Below are positions 2,898-47,505 of a DNA stretch of 64,000 nt, in pieces (within the stretch, counting starts at the first letter, position 1; every line of letters begins with the position of its first letter). Source of the stretch: a virus. A program made the translations under genes and the position numbers. The stretch is from IMG/VR virus record IMGVR_UViG_3300020383_000006, positions 64,001 through 128,000 of that record. One strand, given 5' to 3'. The notes under the pieces were generated by a model that was given only the letters and a program-made list of their open reading frames with translations, was not told the DNA's origin and ran no database searches.

Positions 2898-4289
2898 ATG
2901 GACAAATATATTGATGGTGTGAGAGTCATCGTAGCTGAAGAACACCATGATTGTGAACACCTACTTGGTAAATTTTTAGATGAAAGTCATTATGACGTTT
3001 TAATAGACGAAGATTGTGATTTTTACGCGCCACCAGAAAACACTTTATTCGGTGTAGAAGAAACCTCAGAAGAAAAATGTATTTTCAAACTGCGCAAAGG
3101 TTTTTTCAGTATGGAAGAACAACGTGGCGCATATGAAGGGTTACGTGATGCGGCAGTTGCTTCTAACAACCGTGGAATTGCTGCTGGCGACCGTACTGAA
3201 ATGACGGGCAACCGAGTTTTCGTTACTGAACGTCATTTACGTATTTTAGACATGATGATGAATCCTGCTGGTGCTGTTATTGATGATGCCTTTACGGTAG
3301 CTGATGCGGTAGCTGATAAGTCTTGGGGTAATCCTAATTCTAAAAAAGGTGAAGCATGGATTATTCGAGTTGTTGGGGATAACTTTGATTTTGAAAAATG
3401 GGCTGAAGAAACAGTAAAATTATCCCCCAGTGAAATGAATAAGAAAGCACGTGAACTTTCAAAAGGCGTTTCTACTACTACATACGCAAATGAAGTTCAT
3501 TCCGGTATTGCTGGTTGGTTTGACCGTTACCCAAGAATTCCTTTTGGGCGAGCAACTTCTTACACAGCAAACAACCCTGAAAAATTTGCTAAATCTTACC
3601 CTTTTCTACAAAAACTTTCGGATGGATTTTCTAAATTTTTGCCTGAACGTTTCGTTAAACAAAAGAAATGTGCCGACTCATTAGACCCTGCTTTTGTCGT
3701 ACCTGAAACGCCGTTTACTACCCTGACGGTTAATAAAACGTTCCGTACAGCAGCTCACAGGGACGCTGGTGACCTGAAAAAAGGGTTCTCTAACCTTAGC
3801 GTGATCACTAATAAAGAAAAGTGTTACACTGGCGGTTATTTAGTTTTACCTGAGTTCCGTGTAGCTGTAAACATTCGTCCTGGTGACTTATTACTTATTA
3901 ATAACCATGACGGGGTTCATGGTAATACGCCTATTGAAATTGATGATGATGGTGAGCGCGTTTCAGTTGTTTGTTATTTCCGTGAAAATATGTTAGAATT
4001 AGGTTCTAAACCATATGAAGATGCAAGAGCCAAATTTGTTGAACAAAGAAGAAATGATAAAAACCACCCAGAGTGGCGTCCATTGTGGAACGGTATTAGT
4101 CCAGGAATGTTTGAGACTGATGAATGGTACAAATTTCTTTACAACGAAATTGGTGAAGAAGAATTATTAAAATACCATCCAAGGGCAAAAGGTAGCATTG
4201 AAGAATTTGAATCTTGTACTAAAAGAAAGGTACATGGGGATGATGTTTGTAATGGATGTAACAAAATATGTAATGGTCGAGGTGAATAA
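2898..4289 (+). CDS. TET/JBP-family 2-oxoglutarate/Fe(II) dioxygenase (base hydroxylase)
   Basis: FTTLTVNKTFRTAAHRDAGD (HxD), distal HGNT His, and RVSVVCYFRE (2OG-binding Arg), plus SGIAGWFDRYPRIP. Next gene is a glycosyltransferase. Confidence 0.85.
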   Translation: MDKYIDGVRVIVAEEHHDCEHLLGKFLDESHYDVLIDEDCDFYAPPENTLFGVEETSEEKCIFKLRKGFFSMEEQRGAYEGLRDAAVASNNRGIAAGDRTEMTGNRVFVTERHLRILDMMMNPAGAVIDDAFTVADAVADKSWGNPNSKKGEAWIIRVVGDNFDFEKWAEETVKLSPSEMNKKARELSKGVSTTTYANEVHSGIAGWFDRYPRIPFGRATSYTANNPEKFAKSYPFLQKLSDGFSKFLPERFVKQKKCADSLDPAFVVPETPFTTLTVNKTFRTAAHRDAGDLKKGFSNLSVITNKEKCYTGGYLVLPEFRVAVNIRPGDLLLINNHDGVHGNTPIEIDDDGERVSVVCYFRENMLELGSKPYEDARAKFVEQRRNDKNHPEWRPLWNGISPGMFETDEWYKFLYNEIGEEELLKYHPRAKGSIEEFESCTKRKVHGDDVCNGCNKICNGRGE

Positions 4290-5113
4290 TGTTAATTTGT
4301 ATACCAACGTATAAGCGCGAAGAAAACCAAAAATGTTATGAACGTATGCCCGACGAAATTAAACGTCGGGTTTTATTGGCTACTCATTCTGATGAAGTAG
4401 AAAACCTTAAAAAAGCTAACCCAGAAGCAAATGTTGTGGATATTGGAGTCACTGACGGCATCGCTGACGTGAGACAAAGAATACTTAACTACGCAAAATC
4501 ACAAAATGAAGAAAAAGTTTTTATAATGGATGATTCTTGCACATTCAAGAAAAGAGTTAAAATGAAACTTACTGAAATGGGCGCTCAAGATTGGGAAGAA
4601 ATGATTGAAAGGGTTTCAGAAAGGCTAGATGAATACCCTATGGTCGGAATTTCTGACCAAGCCGGAAATAACCGCGTTGAGAAACCGGAATTAGAAAACC
4701 AACGTTCATACAGTTGTTATGGTATCAACGTAGAATTTTTTAAAGAAAACGGCATAAGATTTGATGCTATGTATCAAGAAGATAATGATATCAAGTTTTA
4801 TGAAGATTTTTACGTTATACTGAAATTATTGACTTCAGGGTTTAAGAACTTGGTTATCTATGAATACGCCTTTTCACACGCACACGGCAAAAAGGGCGGT
4901 AACAGTGTATTAAGAAGTAATAATACACATAAAAAATCAATAGATTCTTTGAAAACGTTTTTTCCTAAGTTTGTTGATGTCGTAAAGAAGGAAAACCCAT
5001 CTTGGAAAGCAGGTTTAAATGATGAAGAAAACTTTAGATGGGACGTGAAAATTTCTTGGAAAAAGGCTTTTGAATATGGACAATCTAAAGTAGAAAGCGT
5101 TTCTTTATTTTGA
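4289..5113 (+). CDS. GT-A fold glycosyltransferase, TET/JBP-associated type
   Basis: ICIPTYKR N-terminus, FIMDDS (DxD-like), YEDF, KKGGNS motifs; TAATG overlap with the TET stop codon. Confidence 0.8.
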   Translation: MLICIPTYKREENQKCYERMPDEIKRRVLLATHSDEVENLKKANPEANVVDIGVTDGIADVRQRILNYAKSQNEEKVFIMDDSCTFKKRVKMKLTEMGAQDWEEMIERVSERLDEYPMVGISDQAGNNRVEKPELENQRSYSCYGINVEFFKENGIRFDAMYQEDNDIKFYEDFYVILKLLTSGFKNLVIYEYAFSHAHGKKGGNSVLRSNNTHKKSIDSLKTFFPKFVDVVKKENPSWKAGLNDEENFRWDVKISWKKAFEYGQSKVESVSLF

Positions 5114-5123
5114 GGAAGACTTT

Positions 5124-6173
5124 ATGAAATATGAGAAAAGGTTAGTCGTTGATTTTGATGACACACTATTTTTTACTAAAAACCGTGATTGGGAAAATGC
5201 GGAACCCAATTTAGAATTAATAGAAAAGATTAACGGTCTTTATGAAGAAGGCTGGAGAGTAGATATTTTTACTGCTAGAGGTTCAATATCTTGTGACAGT
5301 AGGGAACAAGCAAAGGAAAAATACCTTAATGGTATGTTGCGGTTGCTTGAAAAATATAACGTTATGTATCATGAAATATCTTTTGAAAAACCTTTGGCCG
5401 CTTATTACATTGATGACAAATCTATCACGCCAGAAGAATTTATTAAGAAAGATTTTAAGCAATTACAAGGCGGTCTATCAGGTAGTGATATTTATACTGA
5501 TGGTGAACAAGTCCATAAAACAGATGATAACAGCCATAATGTTGTTGAATGGTATAACGCCACGAATAATATATTAAATACGCCTGAGATACATAGGGTT
5601 GTTGGTAACACTGTTTCTATGGAGTATATTGAACATAATGAATCTTTTTTTGAATCTAATGTTTATTTTGCGTTAGCGTTAATCCAAGAGTCATTAGATT
5701 CAATGAGAAAATTGAAACCGATAAACAATTTAAGGTTTTCTGATTATAAGAAAAGAATTTTAACTAACCACCTTAAACCAGCTTTAGAAAATGATTCACT
5801 AAGTAAACAACAAAAAAAGGTTTTGTTGATAACATATGAAAATTTATCCCTTATTGACGTAAATCCATCATTTTCCCATGGCGATTTCGGTATAAAAAAT
5901 ATGCTTTTTAACGAAGACAAGAAGCTTTATTTGATAGACCCAATCCCACAAACATTCGGTTCTTTAGAAATAGATGTTGCGAAATTCATAGCTTCTATGT
6001 ACATAAATGAATATAATGAGCAACTAATTAATACCTCATTAAAAACCCTTTGTACATTCAATGGTCTAGAGCTGAGTTTAATTAATAAACTAATCAGTTC
6101 AGAATTAATGAGAGTCGTGAAATACCACCCTGACCCTGAAAAGATCGTGGAGCTTATATCGAATGTTTATTGA
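5124..6173 (+). CDS. Fusion: HAD phosphatase (capsule-biosynthesis type) + APH/choline-kinase-like phosphotransferase
   Basis: HAD motifs VDFDDTL, FTARG, KP..YIDD; kinase motifs HGDFGIKN and LIDP. Confidence 0.75.
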   Translation: MKYEKRLVVDFDDTLFFTKNRDWENAEPNLELIEKINGLYEEGWRVDIFTARGSISCDSREQAKEKYLNGMLRLLEKYNVMYHEISFEKPLAAYYIDDKSITPEEFIKKDFKQLQGGLSGSDIYTDGEQVHKTDDNSHNVVEWYNATNNILNTPEIHRVVGNTVSMEYIEHNESFFESNVYFALALIQESLDSMRKLKPINNLRFSDYKKRILTNHLKPALENDSLSKQQKKVLLITYENLSLIDVNPSFSHGDFGIKNMLFNEDKKLYLIDPIPQTFGSLEIDVAKFIASMYINEYNEQLINTSLKTLCTFNGLELSLINKLISSELMRVVKYHPDPEKIVELISNVY

Positions 6174-6627
6174 TAGGAAATCGTTGTCTGAGAAATTAAA
6201 TAAAGAGATGGATGAGGTTAAGATAGGTTTTACTTGTTCCACCTTTGATTTATTTCATGCTGGACACGTTGTTATGTTAGAAGAAGCCAAAACTATGTGT
6301 GATTACCTTATAGTGGGGCTTCTTTCTGACCCGACAATAGATAGACCAGATTCTAAAAATAAACCTATACAAAGTATGTTTGAGCGATATATTCAAGTTT
6401 CTTCTTGTAAATATGTCGACGAAGTTATACCTTTCCAAACTGAACAAGAAATTATCGATATAATTTTAACCATACAACCTGATGTGAGGGTTGTTGGGGA
6501 AGAATATAAAGGTGAAAATTTTACTGGAAACGATTTGTGTTTCGTACATTTTAATAAAAGAAGACACTCTTTTTCTTCAACTGATTTAAGAAAAAGAGTT
6601 TTTGAAAATGAAAATAAAGGTGAATAA
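6163..6627 (+). CDS. HxGH nucleotidyltransferase (TagD glycerol-3-phosphate cytidylyltransferase / RfaE domain II family)
   Basis: FTCSTFDLFHAGH, YLIVGL, C-terminal RRHSFSSTDLR. Confidence 0.85.
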   Translation: MFIDRKSLSEKLNKEMDEVKIGFTCSTFDLFHAGHVVMLEEAKTMCDYLIVGLLSDPTIDRPDSKNKPIQSMFERYIQVSSCKYVDEVIPFQTEQEIIDIILTIQPDVRVVGEEYKGENFTGNDLCFVHFNKRRHSFSSTDLRKRVFENENKGE

Positions 6628-6631
6628 AACT

Positions 6632-7336
6632 ATGTCATTAGAAATTACATTTCCACTGTATAATTATTTTTTAAAGCAAGTGATTGATTGGAACCATGCA
6701 GCAAATAACCCACCAGCAACAAAAATGGGCGCTAGAAAACTTCAAATTATGCGCCAAGCTGAATATACTCGCTCTGAAGTTCAAGAAACCATGGACGCAG
6801 TATTTGTTCATGATTTAAAAGAAATTGTTGATGGTGTTTGTGACGTTTTCGTTACGGCTGGTTATATGGCACATTTGCAATCACATAAACCCGAAGATGC
6901 TGGATTGATGTCCTTCAAACAAGGGTTTTTACCTAAAACCCAAATGGAACTTATTCCTCAGTTGTTTGCACTAAGGGAAGATTGTAACGTATTTGGTAAC
7001 ATTACTCACGAAAAAGTACAAATGTTACTGTTATCATTGGTCTCAGTTTTTCGAACTACGTTTGACATTGAAAAACCCGTTTCTAAAGTAGAAAGTTTTG
7101 TACAAGAAGTATTGGATTCTAATAATTCTAAGTTTATACCTTTGCAAGAGTATGAGAAATATAAAGTCCTTCATAATGAATACGTTAATAAGAAGTATGA
7201 AGGTAAATTTGAAAACATTGTTCCTGTATACACTAAACTTGGAACCCGTGACGTCGTAGTTTTCCGAGCGGATAATGGCGAAGGTAAAATTCTTAAACCT
7301 TCAACGTTCCGTGAACCGAAATTCGACCTTTCATAA
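6632..7336 (+). CDS. MazG-like all-alpha NTP pyrophosphohydrolase
   Basis: EVQE...EIVDGVCD metal-binding pattern, SNNSK, GKILKP. Start 6632 follows SD AAGGTG; the track start is 6602. Confidence 0.7.
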   Translation: MSLEITFPLYNYFLKQVIDWNHAANNPPATKMGARKLQIMRQAEYTRSEVQETMDAVFVHDLKEIVDGVCDVFVTAGYMAHLQSHKPEDAGLMSFKQGFLPKTQMELIPQLFALREDCNVFGNITHEKVQMLLLSLVSVFRTTFDIEKPVSKVESFVQEVLDSNNSKFIPLQEYEKYKVLHNEYVNKKYEGKFENIVPVYTKLGTRDVVVFRADNGEGKILKPSTFREPKFDLS

Positions 7337-7343
7337 ATTCCAC

Positions 7344-7388
7344 TTTAAATAAGAAATGAAACGGGGTATATTATTGCCCCGTTCCTTT
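7344..7388 (+). promoter_or_regulatory. Hairpin plus putative promoter upstream of gp43
   Basis: TTTAAA(7344)-17nt-TATATT(7367); stem AACGGGGTA/TGCCCCGTT at 7360-7383. Confidence 0.45.
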
Positions 7389-7412
7389 TAATTCTATACA
7401 GGGATTACGAAT

Positions 7413-9980
7413 ATGATATATACCTATTACCGCCAGCTTGGTAATAAAATCCTACTTAGATATATTGATGAAGAAGGTGAAACCCATTCCAAAAAAATTG
7501 ATTTTTATAAACCGAAACTATACTTGAGAAGCGAAAAAGAATGTTCCCATCGTTCAATTTATGGGGAACCGTTGCGTGAAGTCGAATTTCCTGACATTAA
7601 TGCGGCAAAACAATTTGCTGAAGAACACAAGTATATTCCTGAAATCGGTTTGAACGGCAATTCAAATTATGCAAACCAATTCATTATTGAAGTTTTTGAT
7701 GGAAAAACGCCTAAGTTTGATATCAATACCTTTAATATCGGTATGTTTGATATCGAGGTTGATGCTGATGAATTTCCTTTACCTGAAGAAGCCAAATATG
7801 TGGTTAATGCTTTCTCACTCTACTCTAGTAAGGAAAACAAGTTCTATGCTAGGGCTATACCTCATAAACCTGAAGATAATTGGTCTAAGGATGCTTCAGA
7901 AGAGGATGAAATCAAAAAATTAGATATTGATTTCAAACTTTGTCAAGATGAAACTGAATTGTTGATGGAATTTTTGACGTTGGTTTCTTCGGGAGATTAC
8001 CATATTATTTCAGGATGGAACTCACAAGGCTTTGACGTTCCTTACTTAGTAAACCGTTGCAGTAAAATCGTCGGTGAAAAAACCACAAGGAAAATGCTTT
8101 CCCCGTTTAATAAAATTGATGAACGTGAAAGTATTGATAACTACGGCAAAAAGAAAGTCAAATATATTTTGAGCGGTTTGCCTCACCTTGATTTCATGGA
8201 TTTATATAAGAAACACGTTTTTACACCAAGGGAATCATATAAACTTGATTTCATTGCTTCCGAAGAATTGGGTGAAAATAAAATTGAATATGAAGATACG
8301 CTTCATGATTTGTATCGTGAAAACTTTCAGAAGTTTGTAGATTACAATATTCAAGATAGTAATCTAATTAAGCGACTAGATGACAAACTCGGATTATTTC
8401 AATTGACGCTTTCTTTGGCTTATATTTCTTTATCTAATTTTGAAGATACAATGGGTACGGTTAAAATTTGGGAACAATTAGTTGCTAAATTTTTGTATCA
8501 AAAAGGGAATAAAGTTCCGTTATTCAGGAAAGAAGCGATAACTGATGAACGTGATTTTGAAGGCGCTTTCGTTAAAGAACCTGTTCCTGGGTTTTATAAT
8601 TGGATAGTGAGCTTTGACTTAAATTCACTTTACCCGCATATCGAACAACAATGGAATATCGGTCCAGAAACGCTAGTTCCTTATGACCAATTACCTAGTG
8701 AATTAAAAGAAATCGTTGATAACTATACGTTCAATGATATTTTAGACATGAAAGTTAACATAAAACCGTTATTAGAAAAACATAATTTAACAATGGCGGC
8801 AAACTTTGAATTTTACAAGATTGATGAAATGTCATTCTTTTCTGAGATTAAACGTGAGTTGTATAGTGAACGTAAAGTACATAAAAAAGCAATGCTTGGT
8901 TATGAACAGAAAAAGGTAGATGCTGAATCAAGTTCAGAACAATTCAAGTATGAATCACTTGAATCTTCAGAAAATTCTATGCAAATGGGATTAAAAATCT
9001 TGCTCAACGGAGGCTACGGAGCCCTTGGCAATACGTCTTTTCTTTACTATAAGGTTGAGAATGCTGAAGCGATTACGTTATCCGGTCAATACGTTAACAA
9101 GTATGTTTCTCAGAAAATTGAAACGTTCTTACAAAAATTATTTTCTTCAGAAAAACGTTATTGGGTTTACTCTGATACGGATTCAGCGTATCTTACTATT
9201 GAAGATTTTGTTAATACGTTAGATGGTTCTAAAGGGGTTGAGTATCTAGTAGAACAAACTGATCGTTTCTGTGAAGATGTTATTTCACCTGAAATTAAAA
9301 AGTTGTGTGATGAAATTTGCGAGTACATGAATTGTTATGAACAACGCATGTTCTGGGAACGTGAAGTTATTTCTAATGTAGCTGTTTGGGTTGCTAAGAA
9401 AAAATATGTAATGTCGGTTCTTGATTCAGAAGGAACGAAATATTACAAAGAGCCCAAAATTAAAATCATGGGTATGGAGTCCGTAAAATCTTCAACCCCA
9501 GGATGGGCTAGGGTGGCTCTTAAAAGTTGCTATAAATCCTGTTTAGGGAAGGATAAGAGTGATTTTTATTCATTGTTGAGTGATATCACTGATTCTTATT
9601 ACAATAAACAACCAAATGAAATTGCTATTCCAACCAAAGTAAACGGATTAGAAAAATACCATGATCCTGAAAAAATATTCGCTAAGGGTGCACAGGCTCA
9701 TGTTAAAGCGGCTCTGTTCCATAATTACGTTTTGGAACAACAAGAATATAAACATATCGGCAAAATTAATAGCGGAGATAGTATTAAATACGTTATACTG
9801 AAAGAACCGAACCCAACTGGATTCCCTGTTATCGGTTTTGATACTTACCTTCCTAAAGAATTTAATGTTGAGGATTATATTGATAAAGACACTATGTTTG
9901 AAAAATCATTTATGTCTGCATTAAGAATATTCCTAAATGCTATTAAATGGGAAGAAGAAGAACAAGTCAGTTTATTTTAA
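7413..9980 (+). CDS. 43: Family B DNA polymerase, T4 gp43-like
   Basis: FDIEV, GWNSQGFDVPY, YNIQD exonuclease motifs; SFDLNSLYP, KILLNGGYGALG, YSDTDS, KKKY, MGMESVKSSTP. Confidence 0.97.
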   Translation: MIYTYYRQLGNKILLRYIDEEGETHSKKIDFYKPKLYLRSEKECSHRSIYGEPLREVEFPDINAAKQFAEEHKYIPEIGLNGNSNYANQFIIEVFDGKTPKFDINTFNIGMFDIEVDADEFPLPEEAKYVVNAFSLYSSKENKFYARAIPHKPEDNWSKDASEEDEIKKLDIDFKLCQDETELLMEFLTLVSSGDYHIISGWNSQGFDVPYLVNRCSKIVGEKTTRKMLSPFNKIDERESIDNYGKKKVKYILSGLPHLDFMDLYKKHVFTPRESYKLDFIASEELGENKIEYEDTLHDLYRENFQKFVDYNIQDSNLIKRLDDKLGLFQLTLSLAYISLSNFEDTMGTVKIWEQLVAKFLYQKGNKVPLFRKEAITDERDFEGAFVKEPVPGFYNWIVSFDLNSLYPHIEQQWNIGPETLVPYDQLPSELKEIVDNYTFNDILDMKVNIKPLLEKHNLTMAANFEFYKIDEMSFFSEIKRELYSERKVHKKAMLGYEQKKVDAESSSEQFKYESLESSENSMQMGLKILLNGGYGALGNTSFLYYKVENAEAITLSGQYVNKYVSQKIETFLQKLFSSEKRYWVYSDTDSAYLTIEDFVNTLDGSKGVEYLVEQTDRFCEDVISPEIKKLCDEICEYMNCYEQRMFWEREVISNVAVWVAKKKYVMSVLDSEGTKYYKEPKIKIMGMESVKSSTPGWARVALKSCYKSCLGKDKSDFYSLLSDITDSYYNKQPNEIAIPTKVNGLEKYHDPEKIFAKGAQAHVKAALFHNYVLEQQEYKHIGKINSGDSIKYVILKEPNPTGFPVIGFDTYLPKEFNVEDYIDKDTMFEKSFMSALRIFLNAIKWEEEEQVSLF

Positions 9981-10555: not shown

Positions 10556-11515
10556 ATGTCTCTAGCTGAAAAATTTGCTAAAAACTCAAAATTGAAAGGT
10601 AGTGGAACGTTTTCTAAAACATTAGAAAAACCAGTGAAACTATATGACACTGGCGTACCAGCATTAAACCTTGCTTATAGCGGTGACCTATTTGGTGGAA
10701 CTAAATCAGGCGTTACTTGTATAGCAGGTAAATCAAAATCATTTAAAACGTTATTTGGGTTGATTGCTTGTAAAGCGTATATGGATGAACACCCTGACGC
10801 ATATATGTTATTTTATGATTCAGAAGGCGGTGCGTCGAAAGAATACTATGAACAAATTGGTATTGATACCGACCGAGTTATTTATCTACCTATCATGAAT
10901 ATTGAGGAACTAAAATTTGATTTAGTTCCTAAACTTGAAGAAATCAAAAAAGAACATGATGAAGCTAAAAAAGAAGAAGATAAACCAAGGTTCATCGTAT
11001 TCTGTGACTCAATCGGAAACTTAGCATCAATTAAAGAAGTAACTGATGCAATGAATGACAATTCAGCTACTGATATGGGTATCAGAGCTAAAACACTAAA
11101 AGCATTATTCCGTATCATGACACCTTATTTCAAGCGTTGTGAAATACAAATGATTGCTATTATGCACACGTATGATGAAATGGCTGCTATGGGTGCACCA
11201 AAACAAATTATGAGCGGTGGTTGTGTTACTGAAGGAACCCGTATTATGCTTGAAAACGGGGATTTTGTAGAAATACAAAATATCCAAGAAGGTGACATGG
11301 TAATGTCAAAAGAAGGTCCTAGAAAAGTAGACCATATTTGGGATCCTGAAACTCTTGAAGAAGGAAACCCAGAATGCTTGCGTTTAACTTTCGATGATGG
11401 ATATCAAGTAGAATGTTCCGAGAAACATAGATTCTTAGTTAAAAATGAAAACGGTGATGAAGAATGGGTTATGGCTAAGGATTTAACTGAAGGAATGGAC
11501 TTAATTTCTATTTAA
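10556..11515 (+). CDS. uvsX: UvsX recombinase N-terminal part (222 aa) fused to split-intein N-fragment (97 aa)
   Basis: DTGVPALNLAYSG, Walker A AGKSKSFKT, FYDSEGG, DSIGNLAS. After MSGG comes intein block A CVTEGTRIML and block B ECSEKHRF, then stop. Confidence 0.93.
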   Translation: MSLAEKFAKNSKLKGSGTFSKTLEKPVKLYDTGVPALNLAYSGDLFGGTKSGVTCIAGKSKSFKTLFGLIACKAYMDEHPDAYMLFYDSEGGASKEYYEQIGIDTDRVIYLPIMNIEELKFDLVPKLEEIKKEHDEAKKEEDKPRFIVFCDSIGNLASIKEVTDAMNDNSATDMGIRAKTLKALFRIMTPYFKRCEIQMIAIMHTYDEMAAMGAPKQIMSGGCVTEGTRIMLENGDFVEIQNIQEGDMVMSKEGPRKVDHIWDPETLEEGNPECLRLTFDDGYQVECSEKHRFLVKNENGDEEWVMAKDLTEGMDLISI

Positions 11516-11522
11516 TTTGAAT

Positions 11523-11583
11523 TTTAAACCTCTAGGATAATAAATACTTTATGCGAAGAGTACAAAAGTCCTAGAGGTTTAAA
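11523..11583 (+). promoter_or_regulatory. 15-bp inverted repeat sequestering the endonuclease RBS, with late promoter AATAAATA in the loop
   Basis: TTTAAACCTCTAGGA (11523-11537) pairs with TCCTAGAGGTTTAAA (11569-11583), which contains GAGG and the A of ATG; AATAAATA at 11539-11546. Confidence 0.8.
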
Positions 11584-12746
11584 TGAATATAGTTTATAAA
11601 ATAACTTTTTTAGATAGAAAAGAAAATAACATATACCCATATATCTATATAGGTTCTAAATCAAATTGTAATTTTGTTGATGGTAAAATTATAGATAGAA
11701 ACGGTAATAGTTATTATGGAAGTTCAACTTGGCCAAATTATTATGAAATAGTAAAAAAGGGTAATCTGAAAATTGAATTATTATTTCATTCAGAAAATTA
11801 TAATGAATGTTTAATGAAAGAAAAAGAATTACATTTAAAAGAAGATGTTGTAGCGAACCCTGAATATTTTAATAAGACAATAGCTTCTATAAGTAATTAC
11901 TCTGACCCTAGTTATGCAACTTATAAACATACATTATATGGTAAAATAGTTAGGTTGCCTAGAAACCATCCGTTAGTCGAAAACGGTACTTATGTTGGGG
12001 TTACAAAAGGGGATACAGTTAAACATTCAGGCAATGGTTCTAGGTTTGGAATGTTTAATTCTTTTTATGGAAAAACGCATAGTGAACAAACTAAACAAAA
12101 ATTAAGAGAACATAATTTAGGCAAAGTTCATTCTGAAGAATCAAGAAGAAAAATGTCTAAATCTAGGAAAGGTAAAAAGAAGACTAAAGAACACAAAGAA
12201 AAGATAGGTAGGAAAGGTATGGTTAATTTTGTTAACGTAAAAACAAAAGAAACCATTAGGGTGTATAGGGAAGAATTTGAGTTGAGGGATGACAAAAAAG
12301 ATTGGTTGACCCAAGCAAAATATAATTCTATCTATAACAAACCTGAAGAAATTATTTGTGAGTATTGTGGAATGAGCTTATCTCCTGGTAATTATTCTCG
12401 GTTTCATGGTAAAAATTGTTCTAAAGTAAAAGTCAGAGAATATAACCCATTCAAAAAATTACTGGAAGGTAAAGGGAAAAACAAAACTATTGAGGAGGTT
12501 CTTTATTTCTTTGATGAGATTGTAAATTTTTTAAAAGAAAATAAAAAGCCTGAAAATATGAGTAGTAAAAGGTATTCATTAGAAGTTTTAATACCTTTTA
12601 CAAAAAATAAATTCGGTGATGTAGAACCCTTTTACGCTGTGATAAAAAGAGTATATAATTCATTTCGAGAAGGGAAAATTGGTGAAGAGACATTTTCATA
12701 TTTCTATAAATGGAAACAAAAGGTAGATTTTAATGCTATTAAGTAA
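11583..12746 (+). CDS. GIY-YIG homing endonuclease (Seg-like) with NUMOD3 repeats and zinc finger
   Basis: IVY...YIYIGSK, YYGSS, EYFNK; FYGKTHSEQTKQKL / GKVHSEESRRKMS; CEYCG...HGKNC. Visibly more AT-rich than its flanks. Confidence 0.88.
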   Translation: MNIVYKITFLDRKENNIYPYIYIGSKSNCNFVDGKIIDRNGNSYYGSSTWPNYYEIVKKGNLKIELLFHSENYNECLMKEKELHLKEDVVANPEYFNKTIASISNYSDPSYATYKHTLYGKIVRLPRNHPLVENGTYVGVTKGDTVKHSGNGSRFGMFNSFYGKTHSEQTKQKLREHNLGKVHSEESRRKMSKSRKGKKKTKEHKEKIGRKGMVNFVNVKTKETIRVYREEFELRDDKKDWLTQAKYNSIYNKPEEIICEYCGMSLSPGNYSRFHGKNCSKVKVREYNPFKKLLEGKGKNKTIEEVLYFFDEIVNFLKENKKPENMSSKRYSLEVLIPFTKNKFGDVEPFYAVIKRVYNSFREGKIGEETFSYFYKWKQKVDFNAIK

Positions 12747-13293
12747 AATTGAAAAAATTGGTAAGCGTCCTGTTTTCGACATATCCGTTAATGGTTCACA
12801 AAATTATGTTTTAGAGAACGGGGTTATAAGTCATAATACCGGACCACTATATTCCTCAGACCAAGTTTTCATCGTTCGCAAGCGCCAAATCAAAGAAGGC
12901 AAAGAAATTATTGGTTGGGAATTTATTCTTGATATTGAAAAATCAAGAACGATTCGCGAAAAATCATCAATCCCATTTGAAGTGAAATACGGGGAAGGAT
13001 TAAATCGTTTTTCTGCTCTACTTGACTTAGCTATTGCTTCGGGTCACGTGATTAAACCTAAGATGGGTTGGTATTCTCGTGCTAACGTAGAAGATGATAA
13101 AAATTGGCGTAGAAAAGAAACTTCTTCAGATGAATTTTGGGATCCTATTCTTAATGACCAAACGTTTGTCGATGCCGTTAAAAATATGTATCGTTTGGAT
13201 GGTGGCGACCCAATTCTACAAAAGAAACTTGATAATTTAGTTCAAGATGAAGATTTTGACCCTGAAACAGGTGAAATCTTCGATAAAGAATAA
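12733..13293 (+). CDS. uvsX: Split-intein C-fragment (35 aa) fused to UvsX C-terminal part (151 aa)
   Basis: VFDISV (block F), NYVLENGVISHN|T (block G), then TGPLYSSDQVFIVRKRQIKEG, EKSRTIREKS, KPKMGWY. Has its own SD (AAGGT). Confidence 0.93.
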   Translation: MLLSKIEKIGKRPVFDISVNGSQNYVLENGVISHNTGPLYSSDQVFIVRKRQIKEGKEIIGWEFILDIEKSRTIREKSSIPFEVKYGEGLNRFSALLDLAIASGHVIKPKMGWYSRANVEDDKNWRRKETSSDEFWDPILNDQTFVDAVKNMYRLDGGDPILQKKLDNLVQDEDFDPETGEIFDKE

Positions 13294-17266: not shown

Positions 17267-17294
17267 AAAAGGGACTTCTTAAAGTCCCTTTTTT
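17267..17294. terminator. Bidirectional intrinsic terminator at the convergence of the early and late blocks
   Basis: AAAAGGGACTT-ctta-AAGTCCCTTTT with an A-run before and a T-run after. Confidence 0.8.
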
Positions 17295-19078
17295 ATTACC
17301 AGTTTATACCTTAATGAACCTGCATCATATATTCTAAGAAACCCATTCTTCCTCATATTTTGGTATTCAGTTAAAGATTCATCGTATTTATCTAATTTTT
17401 CTTCTAATTTATGTTTCATGAATTTATTTCGTGAATGTCGTTTACCATCATAATAAAAGTAATTAGGGTTCGTCATTCCGTTATATTCAAACCCATTTTT
17501 CTCATACATTATTCCATTACCGTAGTCTAATGACACATAAGTATGTATAATTGATGGATTATGTTTTCTTATAAAAGATTTAAGCAACTTTCCGAAGCCA
17601 CCTACGCAATTCAGCGAGGCATACCTAATAATTTCGTATTCGTCCTTACAGGAAGGATTTAACCCTAAAACGGATACGAGCTTACCTTCATAAATTAAAC
17701 CATAATAATATTTTGCGTCACGTGAACCTTGAATATGTGTTTTTTCTAAAAATGGAAAATATTCTTCTTTTGTTAATTTAACAACTGAACATTTTCTAGC
17801 ATAATATCGTTCATTTGATTTACCACACATATGTAATATTTTAGATTTAATCACTTCAGGTTTTTGTTCCCACCAATCTTCATACACATGGATAATTCTA
17901 TATCCTTTATCTAAAACCTCAAGGGATTTATTTTGATGGTAATTCCTATCACCTTTCATTTCAAACGAATGCCAAAACATGCCGTTAAATTCTATAACGA
18001 TTTTATGTTCAGGTATAATGATATCACATTCTTTGGGTGAAATTAATGAACGGTCATTTGGAATGTAATCAATATTGTTTTCTTCTAGAAATTTTCTAAC
18101 TTCCATTTCTTTTGATGAAACAGAATAAGAATTTTTCCTATCTATACCTAAAGCAATCATTGCTTGTAAAACAGTTCTATGAGAACCAACTCCAATTACT
18201 TCAGCAATTTTCCTAGAACATTGATACTTTTCGTATAATTCTAACAATAATTGTTTATTTGTTAATGCTTCTATAATTTCATCAGTAAAATGTATTTTAG
18301 AATAATTGTCATGCCCGTATCGTTCTTGGTTTGTTTCAATAACTTTTTGGAGTATATCCTTAGACTGAAGTGGGCGTTCAACACCATGATTTTGTAAACA
18401 AGTACCTTTTGATTTATCTAATATTTCAGGTGATTGTAATACATGGTTAACACCATATTTTTCAAGAACAGTTTCGGTGGATTTTTCTTTAGTAGATTCT
18501 AATTGAAATACGTTATCAACACCATATCTTTCATTTACGGAATCTACTCTATTTTGTTTAACTTGTTCACTTGAACGATAATCTTCTACACCATATTTTT
18601 CTTTTGAAGTTTGTTTAACTTTTTCTTTAAACTCATTAGAAGTAAAAACGTGTTCAGAACCATAACGTTCTTTATTTGTTTGTTTAATCTTTTCTTTAAT
18701 AGAATCATCTTTCATATGGTGACCACCATATTTTTCTGATGAAATTTTTCTAGCATTTTCTGATGAACATTTAACTGAACAGAATTTAGCAAAACCGCCT
18801 TTTTTATAATAAGGGGATTGTTTATCTATTCCCTTTGGTAAAATATTACCGCATGAGCATTTTGGAATTGAATTTATTTCATACAAAACGCAATATAATC
18901 TTTGAACCAAAGGTACGTTATTATATTGTTCATCTAAGAAAGAAGTTTTGATCAATAATTCTTTAACAAAATTTGTATGTTTACTGGAACGAATTTCCCT
19001 TCCATTAGGGTAATTATTTTCAATGATATATTCTTTCAAGTTCATATTATAATTCTGGTTCTTTATAAGATCATTCAA
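17279..19078 (-). CDS. Hef-like free-standing putative homing endonuclease (repeats + Vsr/PD-(D/E)xK-like domain + C-terminal domain)
   Basis: CxC...FCSVKC zinc motif; seven E(K/R)YG-type repeats; SSKEMEV...ECDIII...IEFNGMFWH; YARKC...HIQG...IYDAG C-terminal domain. TTG start with SD TAAGGT. Confidence 0.75.
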   Translation of the reverse strand: MNDLIKNQNYNMNLKEYIIENNYPNGREIRSSKHTNFVKELLIKTSFLDEQYNNVPLVQRLYCVLYEINSIPKCSCGNILPKGIDKQSPYYKKGGFAKFCSVKCSSENARKISSEKYGGHHMKDDSIKEKIKQTNKERYGSEHVFTSNEFKEKVKQTSKEKYGVEDYRSSEQVKQNRVDSVNERYGVDNVFQLESTKEKSTETVLEKYGVNHVLQSPEILDKSKGTCLQNHGVERPLQSKDILQKVIETNQERYGHDNYSKIHFTDEIIEALTNKQLLLELYEKYQCSRKIAEVIGVGSHRTVLQAMIALGIDRKNSYSVSSKEMEVRKFLEENNIDYIPNDRSLISPKECDIIIPEHKIVIEFNGMFWHSFEMKGDRNYHQNKSLEVLDKGYRIIHVYEDWWEQKPEVIKSKILHMCGKSNERYYARKCSVVKLTKEEYFPFLEKTHIQGSRDAKYYYGLIYEGKLVSVLGLNPSCKDEYEIIRYASLNCVGGFGKLLKSFIRKHNPSIIHTYVSLDYGNGIMYEKNGFEYNGMTNPNYFYYDGKRHSRNKFMKHKLEEKLDKYDESLTEYQNMRKNGFLRIYDAGSLRYKLVIKKGL

Positions 19079-38106: not shown

Positions 38107-39357
38107 TTAAAATGATACAATAAATTTGTATTCTTCGGTTTTTTCTTCTGACCTCGTAACGGGTTTTATATTTTTAAACCACAACAAGTTACCAGAGTTT
38201 TTCAAGTAATTACCTTTATTTATAACTTCTTCCGTTAACGGTAAATGTTCAGTATTAATTTTGTTAATGATTTCAGTGGTAAAACCTTCACCGTGTATTT
38301 TTGTATCAAAACCGCTTAATATGGAGTCGGTGTAAAACATAGAGTTATCTTTATCAACCATTAATACATTAATTTCTTCACCGCTAGAGGTACGTAATTT
38401 TTGACCTCTTTTAATTTTTCTTATACAGGTTACTTTTACAACACAACCTTTTTTATTAGATAATCCTTTAGATACTACTCCAATTCTTCTATACGTTATA
38501 CCAGTCGGCAACCCTTCTTTAGATCCTTCCAATTTTATATCAAGTAATTTGTATATTGCGTGTAATTCTTCTTTAGGGTTATAACCATGCCCACCTACTG
38601 GAGAAACAACAGGACGCATCACCGTATTACATGAGCATTCGTTAGATTGAACCTCAACGAACGCTCTTCTATACCCCTTCCCTGGATTTATAATTTTTAC
38701 TTTTTCAATTTTACCATCTTTAATTATTGCTTTTGCTTCGCAACCGTAACCATCACCTTTTATGATAATTTTTGGTGATGTTTTAAAACAATTATTTTCA
38801 TTACCGGAAACTATATCTATTCTATCTATAGAACCATCATTTTTCCATTTTTCTTTCATTTGTACAGTATCGTAACAAGGAATATAACCAGTACCAGAAA
38901 AATTTCTTCTGTCCTCTTTATTAACGGAATACATATAAACCCAAACGTATCCGTCTTGACAAGAAAAAGGTTTTTCTAAATTACCTCTCGGCATAACAGT
39001 AGAAACTTCATAATTGTTATTATCAAGACATTTATAGACACCCCACTCTTCATTAATAACGTAAAAGTCTACAGGTTTATCTAAATCAACTTCATCATCG
39101 TATTGAGAATAAACTTTCCCTGAAATCCAAGTATTATCTTCTATGACCGTATGTAAATCTTCGGAATTGATTCTTTTAAGACAAAGAACATCATTTAAAA
39201 CATCAATGTGAGTTTTAACTTCGTTCTTTGCTTCAGGCGGTTCTTGTTCATTTTCCCAAGGACTAGAATTCCCTAAAAAGAAATAATAAGGAACACAATT
39301 AAGTGATTTTTTAAATATGTCACTTGCCGCAATTTTCAGGGAATTTGTTGGTTTCAT
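38107..39357 (-). CDS. 8: Baseplate wedge subunit gp8-like
   Basis: PWENEQEPP, VYKCLDN, DGYVWVYMY, SPVGGHG, RSEEKTEEYKFIVSF. Confidence 0.85.
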   Translation of the reverse strand: MKPTNSLKIAASDIFKKSLNCVPYYFFLGNSSPWENEQEPPEAKNEVKTHIDVLNDVLCLKRINSEDLHTVIEDNTWISGKVYSQYDDEVDLDKPVDFYVINEEWGVYKCLDNNNYEVSTVMPRGNLEKPFSCQDGYVWVYMYSVNKEDRRNFSGTGYIPCYDTVQMKEKWKNDGSIDRIDIVSGNENNCFKTSPKIIIKGDGYGCEAKAIIKDGKIEKVKIINPGKGYRRAFVEVQSNECSCNTVMRPVVSPVGGHGYNPKEELHAIYKLLDIKLEGSKEGLPTGITYRRIGVVSKGLSNKKGCVVKVTCIRKIKRGQKLRTSSGEEINVLMVDKDNSMFYTDSILSGFDTKIHGEGFTTEIINKINTEHLPLTEEVINKGNYLKNSGNLLWFKNIKPVTRSEEKTEEYKFIVSF

Positions 39358-39398
39358 TTTATTGCCTATGCAATTGATTAAAAATTATACTTATACCA

Positions 39399-39590
39399 TT
39401 ATTTATATATTCCAATTTTTACCTTATGTTCTATTAACCGTTCTTCAATTCTTTTTACATCTTCTTTGTTGGTCACTATATCTTTTTGGGCTATTGCTAC
39501 ATCTGTCTCAATTGACCTAATGGCCAGACTATTCTCTTTTATAGTTTCTTTTTCCCAGGCATTTAATCCATCTGACACAACAAGCTCCAA
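39399..39590 (-). CDS. Small coiled-coil hypothetical protein
   Basis: About 60 aa; probable GTG start after GGAG; TTAAATA upstream. Confidence 0.5.
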   Translation of the reverse strand: MELVVSDGLNAWEKETIKENSLAIRSIETDVAIAQKDIVTNKEDVKRIEERLIEHKVKIGIYK

Positions 39591-39727
39591 CTGAATATAT
39601 TAATTATTAAAAGTATTTAATCAGAAGAGTATATATAAATAAAGAGATACCCCCAGCTGACCCTAAAAATACTTTCCTAGCCTATTCACTTTCTTCATTC
39701 TCTCATTCACCGGATACTCGTTTGTTC

Positions 39728-40135
39728 TCAAACATTTTCAAGGTCCGGTTTTTCGGGATACGTAAAGTTAAACGGGTAACCAGGCTGATCGGTGATATCT
39801 AGCAAAGATTTTCTGTAATTCTTGATCTCTTCTTTTAAATCTCCACTAACACTTTCCCACCTCAATGGGTTGCTTGCTACCTTATCTATTTCCTGCAGTA
39901 GCCGTGCTCTTTTCATCCTTGCCTCGGCATCCTTTTCTTCATAGGAGGGCTGATACTCGGCATATCCTTGTACTTTAACTAATTCATACACCTCTCTTCC
40001 CAGTTCCTCTGAGTCATCTGGTGATGCTGTAAAAGGAATCCACCCAAAACCTGGGTGGTTCAATTGAAGATCAATAGTGCCGTCTTTATTCTCTATGCAG
40101 TTTTTTATAGTGTAACTCATCTTTACCTCACGCAA
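39728..40135 (-). CDS. Tail fibre assembly chaperone (Tfa-like)
   Basis: GWIPFTASPDD, R.KR..LL, YRKSLLDITDQPGYP..P; directly after a fibre gene. Confidence 0.8.
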   Translation of the reverse strand: MREVKMSYTIKNCIENKDGTIDLQLNHPGFGWIPFTASPDDSEELGREVYELVKVQGYAEYQPSYEEKDAEARMKRARLLQEIDKVASNPLRWESVSGDLKEEIKNYRKSLLDITDQPGYPFNFTYPEKPDLENV

Positions 40136-42263
40136 TTCTTACAAATAATGTAGTACTTTCCGAAGCATTCCAGTCGGCATTCGCCCACCCCATACACCGC
40201 CATGTGCCTGGCAAACTGATTTTATCCCTTGCTTCAAAAGAGTTAACCGATGAAGCGTCCAGTTTGCTTCCGCTTATTGTATCGCCAGGTCTATATGTTG
40301 GTCCTCCGTCCACATACGCAACGTGTGCTAGCATATATGACCCTACAGCATTAGCATTTGGTTTTCTTGCTGAATATCTTTCATCTGATTCAGACTTACT
40401 GTAGCACGATACGTTTCTAACACTAGATAGACCTACATCTGATTTAGTCGTGCCGCTTCTAATAGAAGAAACCGATGTAGTAGCCGCATCAGATAACCCT
40501 AGATTACTTCTTGCCGTTGACTTATCAGGTAAATCGGCTAGGTTACTTGATTCATTTAAATACCGAGCATCATAATGTGCTCTAGAATAGTTATCTACAA
40601 AACTTAGACCTACATCAGATTTAGTAGTTGCTTGTGCTCTTAGTCCAGAATATGTACCAGAGGTATTGGCTTTGGAAGATGGATTGAAATTACCCGCATG
40701 CCAAACCTTGCTACCGTCCGTGTATAATCCATCGGATTTCATTTCTATGGGGTGGTAAGAAGACCCGTCATACCAGTTCTCCCTGTAAAATGAGTACCCG
40801 CTTGAGCTGTTACGGAATTTGTGAATGGTAGCTGTCGTACCATCATCACGAGCGTCCCAATTTACATGTGCAGAAGTAGCAGAATCATAAAGCCTGAATC
40901 TAGTGGATATCGTTTGCGATCCTGATGTTCTTATAAACCCACTTGAGCTAATACCGTCCAACTTATCAGCATCAACTGCTTTACCTCCAGCAGCCAAATA
41001 ACGACTGTCATAATGTGCTCTTGAGTAGTTATCCACCGAACCTAAACCCACATCGGATTTAGTTGTTCCCTTAGCACGTAAACTAGCAGTTCCTGTTAAT
41101 CCAGAACCACTTCCAGAAAACGATGTTGCTGTTATACTCCCACCAAAATTGGCATTGCCATTAGTATCTATTAGTGTGGTTACTCGATTTAGCCCACTAC
41201 TTAGATTATCACTAGAAGCATAAACTTTAACACCATTTTCACCAGCTATATGAACAATTTCACCACCGAAACCGCCCATGCTACTCATAGATTCACCAGC
41301 ACCAATCTTTATCTCGGTGCCATTGCCAACATATTGAGTACTGGATACTTGATTAAAATCTACATTACTATTTGTGTTTAAACTCTGATTAGCAAAGTTA
41401 ACCATTGATGTAGTAATAGTAGGTAATCTAGAACTACTTAAAGTACCACTAGAAATATTGCCAGCATTTGTAGCGTCTACATTAGGAACATTACCTAAAC
41501 CAACATCAGCTTTTGTAGTACCTGTAGCTCTTAATGAAGCTGTTCCAGTCAAACCAGAACCATTTCCTGAAATGTTTCCTGATACGTTTAAATCGCCATC
41601 AGTTTTAATGGAACCCTTAACATATAAACCGTTGGTAGGTACTTTAGATGAATCACTATATGAACTTGAAACAAGTAATTCATTTGTATTGATGGGTAAA
41701 GCTCCATTACCTTTTAGAAAACTTAACCTATCGTTACTCCCTTGAATAGCTCCAGATAAATATAAATTATCTCCATGATAATTACCTGTAACATATAAAC
41801 TTTTTGTGCTTCCTTCATATTCAATACCAGAATGGGTGTATATTCTATTGTCATCTATAACTGTGCCTATAGAATATCTACCACTAAAAGTTGTACCACC
41901 TTTATAAAAAGCACCGACTTGTGTAGCTGTTATACTTGTTAATCCTGAACCGTTTCCTGAAATTGTACCTGAGACTTCTAAATCAGTTGATACTTCAACT
42001 TTAGAGTTATCGTTATAAACATTAATAGCTCTACGCAAAGTACCATCATAAGAAAACCATGTGGATACTGAATTACCATTACCAAAAGCAAACCCATTAG
42101 TTCCATTAGGGTCAGTATATAATGCATTACCTTCTAAATTTACTGCGTCCCAAGAGTTTTCTTTTATTTGTACATTTTCACTGAATTTAGCTTTTAACCC
42201 TACAGATAGCTCTCCTGTAACAGTTAAATCACCATAGTTTATTGAATCAAATAATTTTGCCAT
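40128..42263 (-). CDS. Tail fibre protein C (711 aa)
   Basis: Repeated TTKSDVGL..V.N, ADKLDG, KVWHAGNF, NLADLPDKSTARSNLGL; tip PGTWRCMG...LFVRIA. Confidence 0.85.
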   Translation of the reverse strand: MAKLFDSINYGDLTVTGELSVGLKAKFSENVQIKENSWDAVNLEGNALYTDPNGTNGFAFGNGNSVSTWFSYDGTLRRAINVYNDNSKVEVSTDLEVSGTISGNGSGLTSITATQVGAFYKGGTTFSGRYSIGTVIDDNRIYTHSGIEYEGSTKSLYVTGNYHGDNLYLSGAIQGSNDRLSFLKGNGALPINTNELLVSSSYSDSSKVPTNGLYVKGSIKTDGDLNVSGNISGNGSGLTGTASLRATGTTKADVGLGNVPNVDATNAGNISSGTLSSSRLPTITTSMVNFANQSLNTNSNVDFNQVSSTQYVGNGTEIKIGAGESMSSMGGFGGEIVHIAGENGVKVYASSDNLSSGLNRVTTLIDTNGNANFGGSITATSFSGSGSGLTGTASLRAKGTTKSDVGLGSVDNYSRAHYDSRYLAAGGKAVDADKLDGISSSGFIRTSGSQTISTRFRLYDSATSAHVNWDARDDGTTATIHKFRNSSSGYSFYRENWYDGSSYHPIEMKSDGLYTDGSKVWHAGNFNPSSKANTSGTYSGLRAQATTKSDVGLSFVDNYSRAHYDARYLNESSNLADLPDKSTARSNLGLSDAATTSVSSIRSGTTKSDVGLSSVRNVSCYSKSESDERYSARKPNANAVGSYMLAHVAYVDGGPTYRPGDTISGSKLDASSVNSFEARDKISLPGTWRCMGWANADWNASESTTLFVRIA

Positions 42264-42264
42264 T

Positions 42265-47088: not shown

Positions 47089-47505
47089 TTAACTTGTACT
47101 TGATTCTTCTATAATATATTGTTCTTCTGCTAAATAATCTTCTTCGTCAGTTCCACCGACCGTAGGATCATAATCAGGTTGTGGTGGGTTATCCCTTCTT
47201 TTAGCAAAAAACAAATATGCTGAATGAACTGCGGCATATATTTCCGCGTATGTCATGTCCTTACCAATATATTTACCTGTTGATGGATCGACGATTCTTA
47301 TAGTTAAATCCATTGTTTCAGGGGAAGATTCAACCTCAATCGATCCACTATCTTGGTTCATTACTGAACCGTCTTGTAGGTTTACACGTTTTTCTTCAAC
47401 AAATTTGACTTTTGGGTATGTTCCGAACTCATTTTCAATAACGATGCGTTTTGTTCTTACCCATGCTTCACCTGATATTGTTGTTTGTTTGTAATTCTCG
47501 GACAT
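47089..47505 (-). CDS. Fibre-associated hypothetical protein
   Basis: 138-aa ORF embedded in the fibre array. Confidence 0.65.
   Translation of the reverse strand: MSENYKQTTISGEAWVRTKRIVIENEFGTYPKVKFVEEKRVNLQDGSVMNQDSGSIEVESSPETMDLTIRIVDPSTGKYIGKDMTYAEIYAAVHSAYLFFAKRRDNPPQPDYDPTVGGTDEEDYLAEEQYIIEESSTS

Follow-up and report, generated by a model that had tools for sequence, protein, structure and literature searches.

The DNA considered here is a 64,000-nucleotide stretch (the window) comprising bases 64001-128000 of IMGVR_UViG_3300020383_000006, a virus record of 145.5 kb. The genome is roughly 90% complete and belongs to a marine, T4-like phage; the window carries genes for the gp23 capsid protein, a prohead protease and a gp41-type helicase, as well as a split uvsX. 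Near its beginning lies a gene cluster for DNA modification, followed by the gene for a gp43-type DNA polymerase. A predicted DNA glycosyltransferase (GT) of this cluster and the polymerase end in the same four residues, VSLF, and we considered whether this ending is a peptide that docks both proteins on the sliding clamp gp45. The features that bear on this question, including two helicase genes elsewhere in the genome, are as follows.

2898..4289, plus strand: TET/JBP-type 2-oxoglutarate-Fe(II) dioxygenase, 463 amino acids (aa) (Pfam PF12851, E 6e-23)
4191..4214, plus strand: candidate buried remnant of an ancestral clamp tail in the TET protein, GSIEEFES, aligned with S-L-E-E-F-F at the terminus of 12 related TETs
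4215..4289, plus strand: Cys-rich 24-residue C-terminal extension of the TET protein and stop codon, absent from all 14 aligned TETs and found only in this phage
4289..5113, plus strand: TET-associated glycosyltransferase, 274 aa, GT-A fold (Pfam TAGT PF20691, 46 bits; cut-off 27.5)
5072..5098, plus strand: variable spacer EYGQSKVES, separating the tail from SWKKAF, the last conserved block in the alignment of GT homologues
5099..5113, plus strand: GT tail VSLF and stop codon, candidate gp45-docking peptide; same as the polymerase tail, with L-x-x-F-F at this place in homologues
5124..6173, plus strand: HAD-like and kinase (APH/fructosamine-kinase-like) protein, no tail; N-terminal DxDxT motif, Pfam kinase matches weak and below cut-off
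6163..6627, plus strand: cytidylyltransferase-like nucleotidyltransferase, 154 aa, no tail (PF01467, E 3e-16)
7413..9980, plus strand: gp43-type family-B DNA polymerase, 855 aa (PF00136 and PF03104; RB69 gp43 match E 1e-105)
9966..9980, plus strand: polymerase tail VSLF and stop codon, at the end of the reading frame; aligns with the RB69 gp43 tail
Genome 39306-40601 (L002:1306-2601), minus strand, outside the window: Dda-like helicase ending ..GISLF (family consensus G[IV][GS]LF)
Genome 47101-48681 (L002:9101-10681), minus strand, outside the window: UvsW-like helicase ending ..SVDLF

The open reading frames (ORFs) of the GT and the polymerase were re-read, and their ends, codons and coordinates are as given in a preliminary description of this DNA. 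The GT (ORF 4289-5113) terminates in ...KVESVSLF, encoded by GTT TCT TTA TTT TGA at 5099-5113, and the polymerase (ORF 7413-9980) terminates in ...EEEEQVSLF, encoded by GTC AGT TTA TTT TAA at 9966-9980. The two genes use different codons for Val and for Ser, which rules out a recent DNA duplication as the source of the shared VSLF and bears out the earlier view that the likeness is one of protein sequence. From amino acid composition, the probability of a VSLF end is 2e-5 per ORF, and 0.004 other ORFs of this kind would be expected.

It had also been claimed that no other ORF ends in this way. This holds within the window, where none of the ORFs besides those for the GT and polymerase ends in LF, but not for the whole genome. 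C-terminal [VIL][SD]LF is present in four of the 203 ORFs of the genome against 0.02-0.04 expected (P about 1e-7): those of the polymerase, the GT, the UvsW-like helicase (...TTSVDLF) and the Dda-like helicase (...CRGISLF). The late sigma factor gp55 ends in ...SALLFN. The Dda-like helicase was at first taken as a fourth specific client and was then dropped; because G[IV][GS]LF is kept in dozens of homologues as a trait of the Dda family, it was left out of the specific count, and the three remaining ends are still far beyond the chance expectation of at most 0.04. Comparison with homologues indicates that the ending of the UvsW-like helicase is a lineage-variable extension. The preliminary description had expected the tail on ligase, gp33 and gp55; of these, only gp55 resembles it, and loosely, and two helicases carry the tail instead. 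Both helicases may be further clamp clients, although to our knowledge neither UvsW nor Dda is a recognized client of gp45 in T4.

The polymerase tail can be aligned with a peptide of established function. When the protein was compared by phmmer with solved structures, its ...AIKWEEEEQVSLF aligned with ...AAKLDYEKKASLF of RB69 gp43, after which the RB69 protein continues with DMFDF. In this alignment ...WEEEEQVSLF pairs with ...DYEKKASLF, so that QVSLF stands opposite KASLF. The RB69 stretch lies in the 11-residue gp43 peptide that was co-crystallised with the RB69 gp45 clamp (PMC2988020, PMC3012046). The record for T4 gp43 gives its end as ...EKASLDFLFG, and in T4 a single motif docks gp43, gp55, gp33 and a loop of the DNA ligase on gp45, with tails that are interchangeable (PMC2988020, PMC6212786). 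The GT and polymerase tails match in four residues, and through this match the GT tail is connected to the RB69 peptide. The preliminary description had pointed to the C-terminal clamp binding of T4 and RB69 gp43, and we conclude from the alignment that, in this lineage, VSLF is probably the form taken by the tail that docks T4 and RB69 gp43 on gp45.

A search for the clamp and its loader, which the preliminary description had suggested, found all three proteins in the genome. The gp45 protein is recognized by phrog_223 (E 3e-44) and by the T4 gp45 structure 1CZD (E 3e-6); the gp44 and gp62 clamp loader subunits are also encoded, and the gp45/44/62 genes lie at genome positions 41052-43273 on the minus strand, with gp45 itself at 42557-43255. 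Two residues of the RB69 gp45 pocket, R32 and Y39 (PMC3012046), were mapped onto the clamps of this phage, pf16 and DLP_6 and are conserved in none of them, a result that is uninformative on pocket co-evolution at only 23-30% identity to T4 gp45.

We then considered the tails of related proteins. In a set of 100 GT homologues, the 63 closest almost all end in [ST]L[EDS][EDS]FF, often with one further residue, and in an alignment of 50 homologues the SWKKAF block is followed by a spacer of 6-14 residues that varies in length and sequence, then by the motif and the stop. Related loci were fetched from IMG/VR by a scan with the GT alignment (a scan with the single GT sequence returned no matches). 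In these loci, a tail of the form L..[FL]F is present on all 12 polymerases, on 34 of 43 TETs and on 34 of 45 GTs, and on none of 26 kinases or 17 cytidylyltransferases. Only the DNA-acting enzymes of these loci bear the tail, and the sugar-activating enzymes of the same cassettes never do. A second TAGT-family GT and a protein with weak likeness to amino-acid:DNA transferases are further bearers. In the cultured Stenotrophomonas phage DLP_6, the polymerase ends in ..TLDSFFA, the GT in ..DLSSFFN and the TET in ..TLGDFFV; this last protein carries the annotation 'SNF2 DNA repair protein' (KU682439.2; L052:22945-24291), but PF12851 (E 8e-19) identifies it as a TET/JBP dioxygenase, and its tail resembles that of the polymerase.

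The GTs and TETs that lack the tail are located in contigs without T4-like genes. One such case, a 54 kb genome that is complete and has terminal repeats, serves as a negative control: it carries a TET-GT-kinase-cytidylyltransferase cassette without tails, and gp45, PolA and PolB were not found in it. By comparison, gp45 is present in two tail-bearing fragments. As further negative controls, a T-even member of the TAGT family and the T4 alpha-glucosyltransferase lack such a tail. More distant TAGTs fall into a third tail class, ending in '..LL'; their contigs were sought in IMG/VR and the JGI metagenomes so that their polymerases could be read, and none were found there.

The genes around the GT form a modification cassette. 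The stop codon of the TET gene, directly upstream, overlaps the GT start codon at 4289, and the TET protein shares 44-53% identity with the tail-bearing, T4-like TETs of related contigs. An AlphaFold2 (AF2) model of the GT has a mean predicted local distance difference test (pLDDT) score of 95.7, and its Foldseek matches to TarS, RmlT and ppGalNAc-T place it in the GT-A fold; the acidic residues D81, D82 and E172, D173 are invariant among homologues. By analogy with published relatives, the TET/JBP dioxygenase would make the 5-hydroxymethylpyrimidine that the GT decorates, and the GT would add a sugar to this base in DNA. No C5-methyltransferase (PF00145) was found in the roughly 90% complete genome, a result that fits thymine rather than 5-methylcytosine as the predicted substrate of the dioxygenase. 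Thymine has been argued to be the substrate in many such cassettes (bioRxiv 10.1101/2023.12.21.572611; PMC13229309). The HAD/kinase protein and the nucleotidyltransferase probably activate the sugar, so that the cassette makes its own donor, because in a published screen a HAD/APH enzyme, a cytidylyltransferase and a GT together placed heptose on 5-hydroxymethylcytosine (bioRxiv 10.1101/2023.12.21.572611). A 244-aa protein without assigned function is encoded between the cytidylyltransferase-like gene and the polymerase gene. Beside dda, on the minus strand at genome 38642-39364 (L002:642-1364), is a gene for a 240-aa MptE-like or sialyltransferase-like protein (phrog_4603), which may be another sugar-handling enzyme outside the cassette.

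These observations point to a mechanism in which the GT tail VSLF would plug into a hydrophobic pocket of gp45, the trimeric clamp encoded by the phage itself. The enzyme would take its place next to the polymerase, or on clamps that remain on replicated DNA, and would be carried along the new duplex, acting at or just behind the fork so that modification is prompt and complete. We give a probability of about 70% to the proposal that VSLF is a gp45-docking peptide that tethers the GT to clamps on replicated DNA. Comparison gives strong support to the clamp-tethered GT of the preliminary description: the two tails are identical, that of the polymerase is homologous to the RB69 gp43 peptide that binds the clamp, and the genome encodes gp45/44/62; across phages the tails covary, and they are absent from the cassette enzymes that do not act on DNA and from the phage without a clamp. 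Binding of the tail to gp45 and action at or just behind the fork are the predicted parts of this claim.

Several observations weigh against tethering. When tails were examined for the h-x-x-a-a spacing of the PCNA-interacting protein (PIP) box, relatives were found to have L-[ED]-x-F-F, whereas in this phage Glu residues lead into V-S-L-F alone, which lacks that spacing. It is also a very short tail; we know of no gp45 complex with a peptide of this length. In the AF2 model, GT residues 257-273 are helical at a pLDDT of about 90, with a drop to 66 confined to the final four; because of this helix, the notion of a flexible linker derives from the variability of the sequence and not from the model. 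The C-termini of gp33, ligase and gp32 of this phage were checked and do not carry the tail. The Dda tail G[IV][GS]LF is kept in its family whatever the tail of the polymerase, and may mean something else. The TET protein, which must act ahead of the GT, has no terminal tail in this phage, and strict coupling of the whole pathway to the fork is therefore doubtful here. Lastly, an interaction between the T4 alpha-glucosyltransferase and gp45 could not be reproduced in vitro or in vivo (bioRxiv 10.64898/2025.12.06.692756; NAR 2026 PMC13216743).

Alternatively, the two proteins might borrow the host beta clamp, DnaN, as the preliminary description had suggested in proposing a beta-clamp-like docking code. 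The consensus of the bacterial beta-clamp motif is reportedly QL[SD]LF, from work by Dalrymple and colleagues in 2001. The polymerase end QVSLF fits four of its five positions, the endings of the polymerase (QVSLF), UvsW (SVDLF) and Dda (GISLF) all conform to x-[LVI]-[SD]-L-F, and the PIP-like spacing seen in relatives is missing from the derived tail. However, the Gln is missing from the GT tail (SVSLF), and the polymerase of pf16 and the related TET/GT contigs bear L-x-x-F-F, which does not fit a beta motif. The phage also encodes a gp45 clamp and a gp44/62 loader and would not need DnaN for want of its own. Because of this clamp and loader, and because the tail is homologous to gp45-binding tails, with VSLF opposite the ASLF of RB69 gp43, recourse to the host clamp is both unneeded and disfavoured, and we regard it as quite improbable.

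The shared tail might instead bind another common partner, such as gp32, the clamp loader or a factor of the replication compartment, or act as a C-terminal degron that times early proteins. Its presence on several early DNA enzymes (the polymerase, GT, UvsW and Dda) would suit such a role, as would its absence from gp33 and ligase, which are known gp45 clients in T4. The force of this absence is reduced by the variety of contacts in T4, where ligase uses an internal loop and RNase H contacts gp45 through an N-terminal motif, so that a missing C-terminal tail says little. The sole established function of the homologous gp43 tail is gp45 binding, and no degron or gp32-binding motif that looks like this is known to us. 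A different partner or signal therefore appears unlikely, although it is a better candidate than DnaN. Four residues are a short match, and two unrelated proteins could in principle share them by coincidence; against the 0.004 such ORFs expected, and with about 60 GT homologues bearing the local polymerase-type tail at the same place, this explanation is effectively refuted by the comparative data and retains a negligible probability.

Returning to a gp45-docking role for VSLF, the form of the tail in this lineage deserves separate consideration. On sequence comparison, VSLF is a derived, shortened form, because the closest cultured polymerase, that of pf16 (44% identity), still ends in ..VVSLEDFFS; the GT carries the same derived form, and the polymerase, GT and UvsW of this phage bear [SD]LF together. 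The closest uncultured relatives of the polymerase (52-56% identity) are in IMG/VR 3300031213_000032 and six sister contigs (the L112 group). Here the polymerase ends in ..KVDMFSF, the TAGT in ..NSLFRSYI and a C5-methyltransferase in ..IIDLFENQ. A [SD][LM]F motif within the last seven residues occurs only in these three of 24 ORFs against 0.14 expected, by a pattern that was chosen after seeing the data. The modification cluster of this group comprises a ThyA-family enzyme, a kinase, the TAGT and the C5-methyltransferase, and searches found no TET in it. Its family-B polymerase is split into two ORFs of 454 and 447 aa, about 200 bp apart (L112:9974-12887).

In the TET protein of our phage, the Cys-rich extension takes the remnant motif SIEEFE (compared with SLEEFF in relatives) off the terminus. 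The extension has four Cys residues in the arrangement C-x10-C-x2-C-x3-C and is possibly a small metal-binding knuckle. We tentatively suggest, while holding it somewhat doubtful, that in this lineage a bare [SD]LF has replaced L-x-x-F-F as the clamp-docking code, with the polymerase, GT and UvsW changing together and the TET taken off the clamp by an extension that buries its old tail. If so, the change would be a natural experiment indicating that DNA-hypermodifying enzymes are true co-evolving clients of the viral sliding clamp, and that a phage is able to select the pathway step that rides the replisome.

Some neighbouring regions are of interest in their own right. Pseudomonas phage pf16 (L153:38955-47357) has a 7-deazaguanine cluster (QueC/D/E and GTP cyclohydrolase) beside its polymerase gene, where the present phage has its TET/GT cassette; it seems that DNA-modification modules can be exchanged at this site next to gene 43. 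A 133-aa ParB-like ORF adjoins uvsW on the minus strand at genome 48691-49092 (L002:10691-11092). A homologue of this ORF (E 9e-5) lies directly upstream of a short TET in a contig that is not T4-like (L041), and ORFs of similar size occupy the position upstream of TET in L031, L034 and L039. A ParB-like ORF beside a TET recalls the ParB-dependent dioxygenases of PMC13229309. Within the window, uvsX (10556-13293) is split by a split intein, with a gene for a NUMOD3/GIY-YIG-type endonuclease between the halves. Between the replication genes and gp23, a 599-aa ORF on the minus strand at 17279-19078, with DUF7487, HTH and Vsr/REase-like domains, is probably a homing-type endonuclease.

The chemistry of TET/GT cassettes has already been published (bioRxiv 10.1101/2023.12.21.572611; PMC8256090; PMC13229309). 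This analysis contributes the derived tail and its covariation, the remnant buried in the TET protein, and the controls from a clamp-less phage and from enzymes that do not act on DNA. Full-text literature searches found no paper on clamp tails of these TET and GT enzymes. A term search of papers on phage TET/GT pathways found no C-terminal clamp motif, and 'clamp' appears in them only for a neighbouring gene or the ParB clamp. If the tails bind gp45, phage hypermodification by TET, GT and methyltransferase would be physically coupled to replication through the sliding clamp. Such coupling would account for the way in which enzymes acting after replication can mask the entire genome quickly enough to evade host nucleases, and the contested proposal of glucosylation on the clamp in T4 would be revived for another family of enzymes. 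In PMC8256090, where tags are described, the TET and GT enzymes were assayed with C-terminal His tags. A tag at this position would mask a terminal docking peptide, and may hide part of the biology of these enzymes. DLP_6 is in culture and has the tail on its polymerase, GT and TET, and therefore the question is directly testable.

The proposed system resembles the tails of gp43, gp55 and gp33 of T4 and RB69 and the internal LDFLF loop of T4 ligase (PMC2988020, PMC6212786, PMC3012046; PDB 1B8H) in using a short hydrophobic peptide in an acidic context, here at the extreme C-terminus after a variable spacer, and in the sharing of one tail by the polymerase and other proteins of the same phage. 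It differs from them in that the tail is cut down to [SD]LF and is borne by a DNA glycosyltransferase; bearers in relatives further include a TET dioxygenase, a second GT and a C5-methyltransferase. In the literature searched, DNA GTs, TET dioxygenases and C5-methyltransferases were not found listed as gp45 clients. With the published phage 5mYOX (TET/JBP) and GT hypermodification pathways (PMC8256090; bioRxiv 10.1101/2023.12.21.572611; PMC13229309), the cassette shares a TET/JBP enzyme beside a GT-A GT, a HAD/APH-like kinase and a cytidylyltransferase, near a DNA polymerase gene. The idea of a DNA GT working on the sliding clamp during replication is the one proposed for the T4 alpha-glucosyltransferase and gp45. 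That enzyme, however, belongs to Pfam PF11440 and not to TAGT, and ends in ...EQFDIITK without a polymerase-like tail. In eukaryotes, DNMT1 is recruited to PCNA via a PIP box. There, too, a DNA-modifying enzyme is coupled to replication by a clamp-binding peptide, although the enzymes are unrelated, the clamp is a different one, and the coupling serves maintenance methylation rather than glycosylation.

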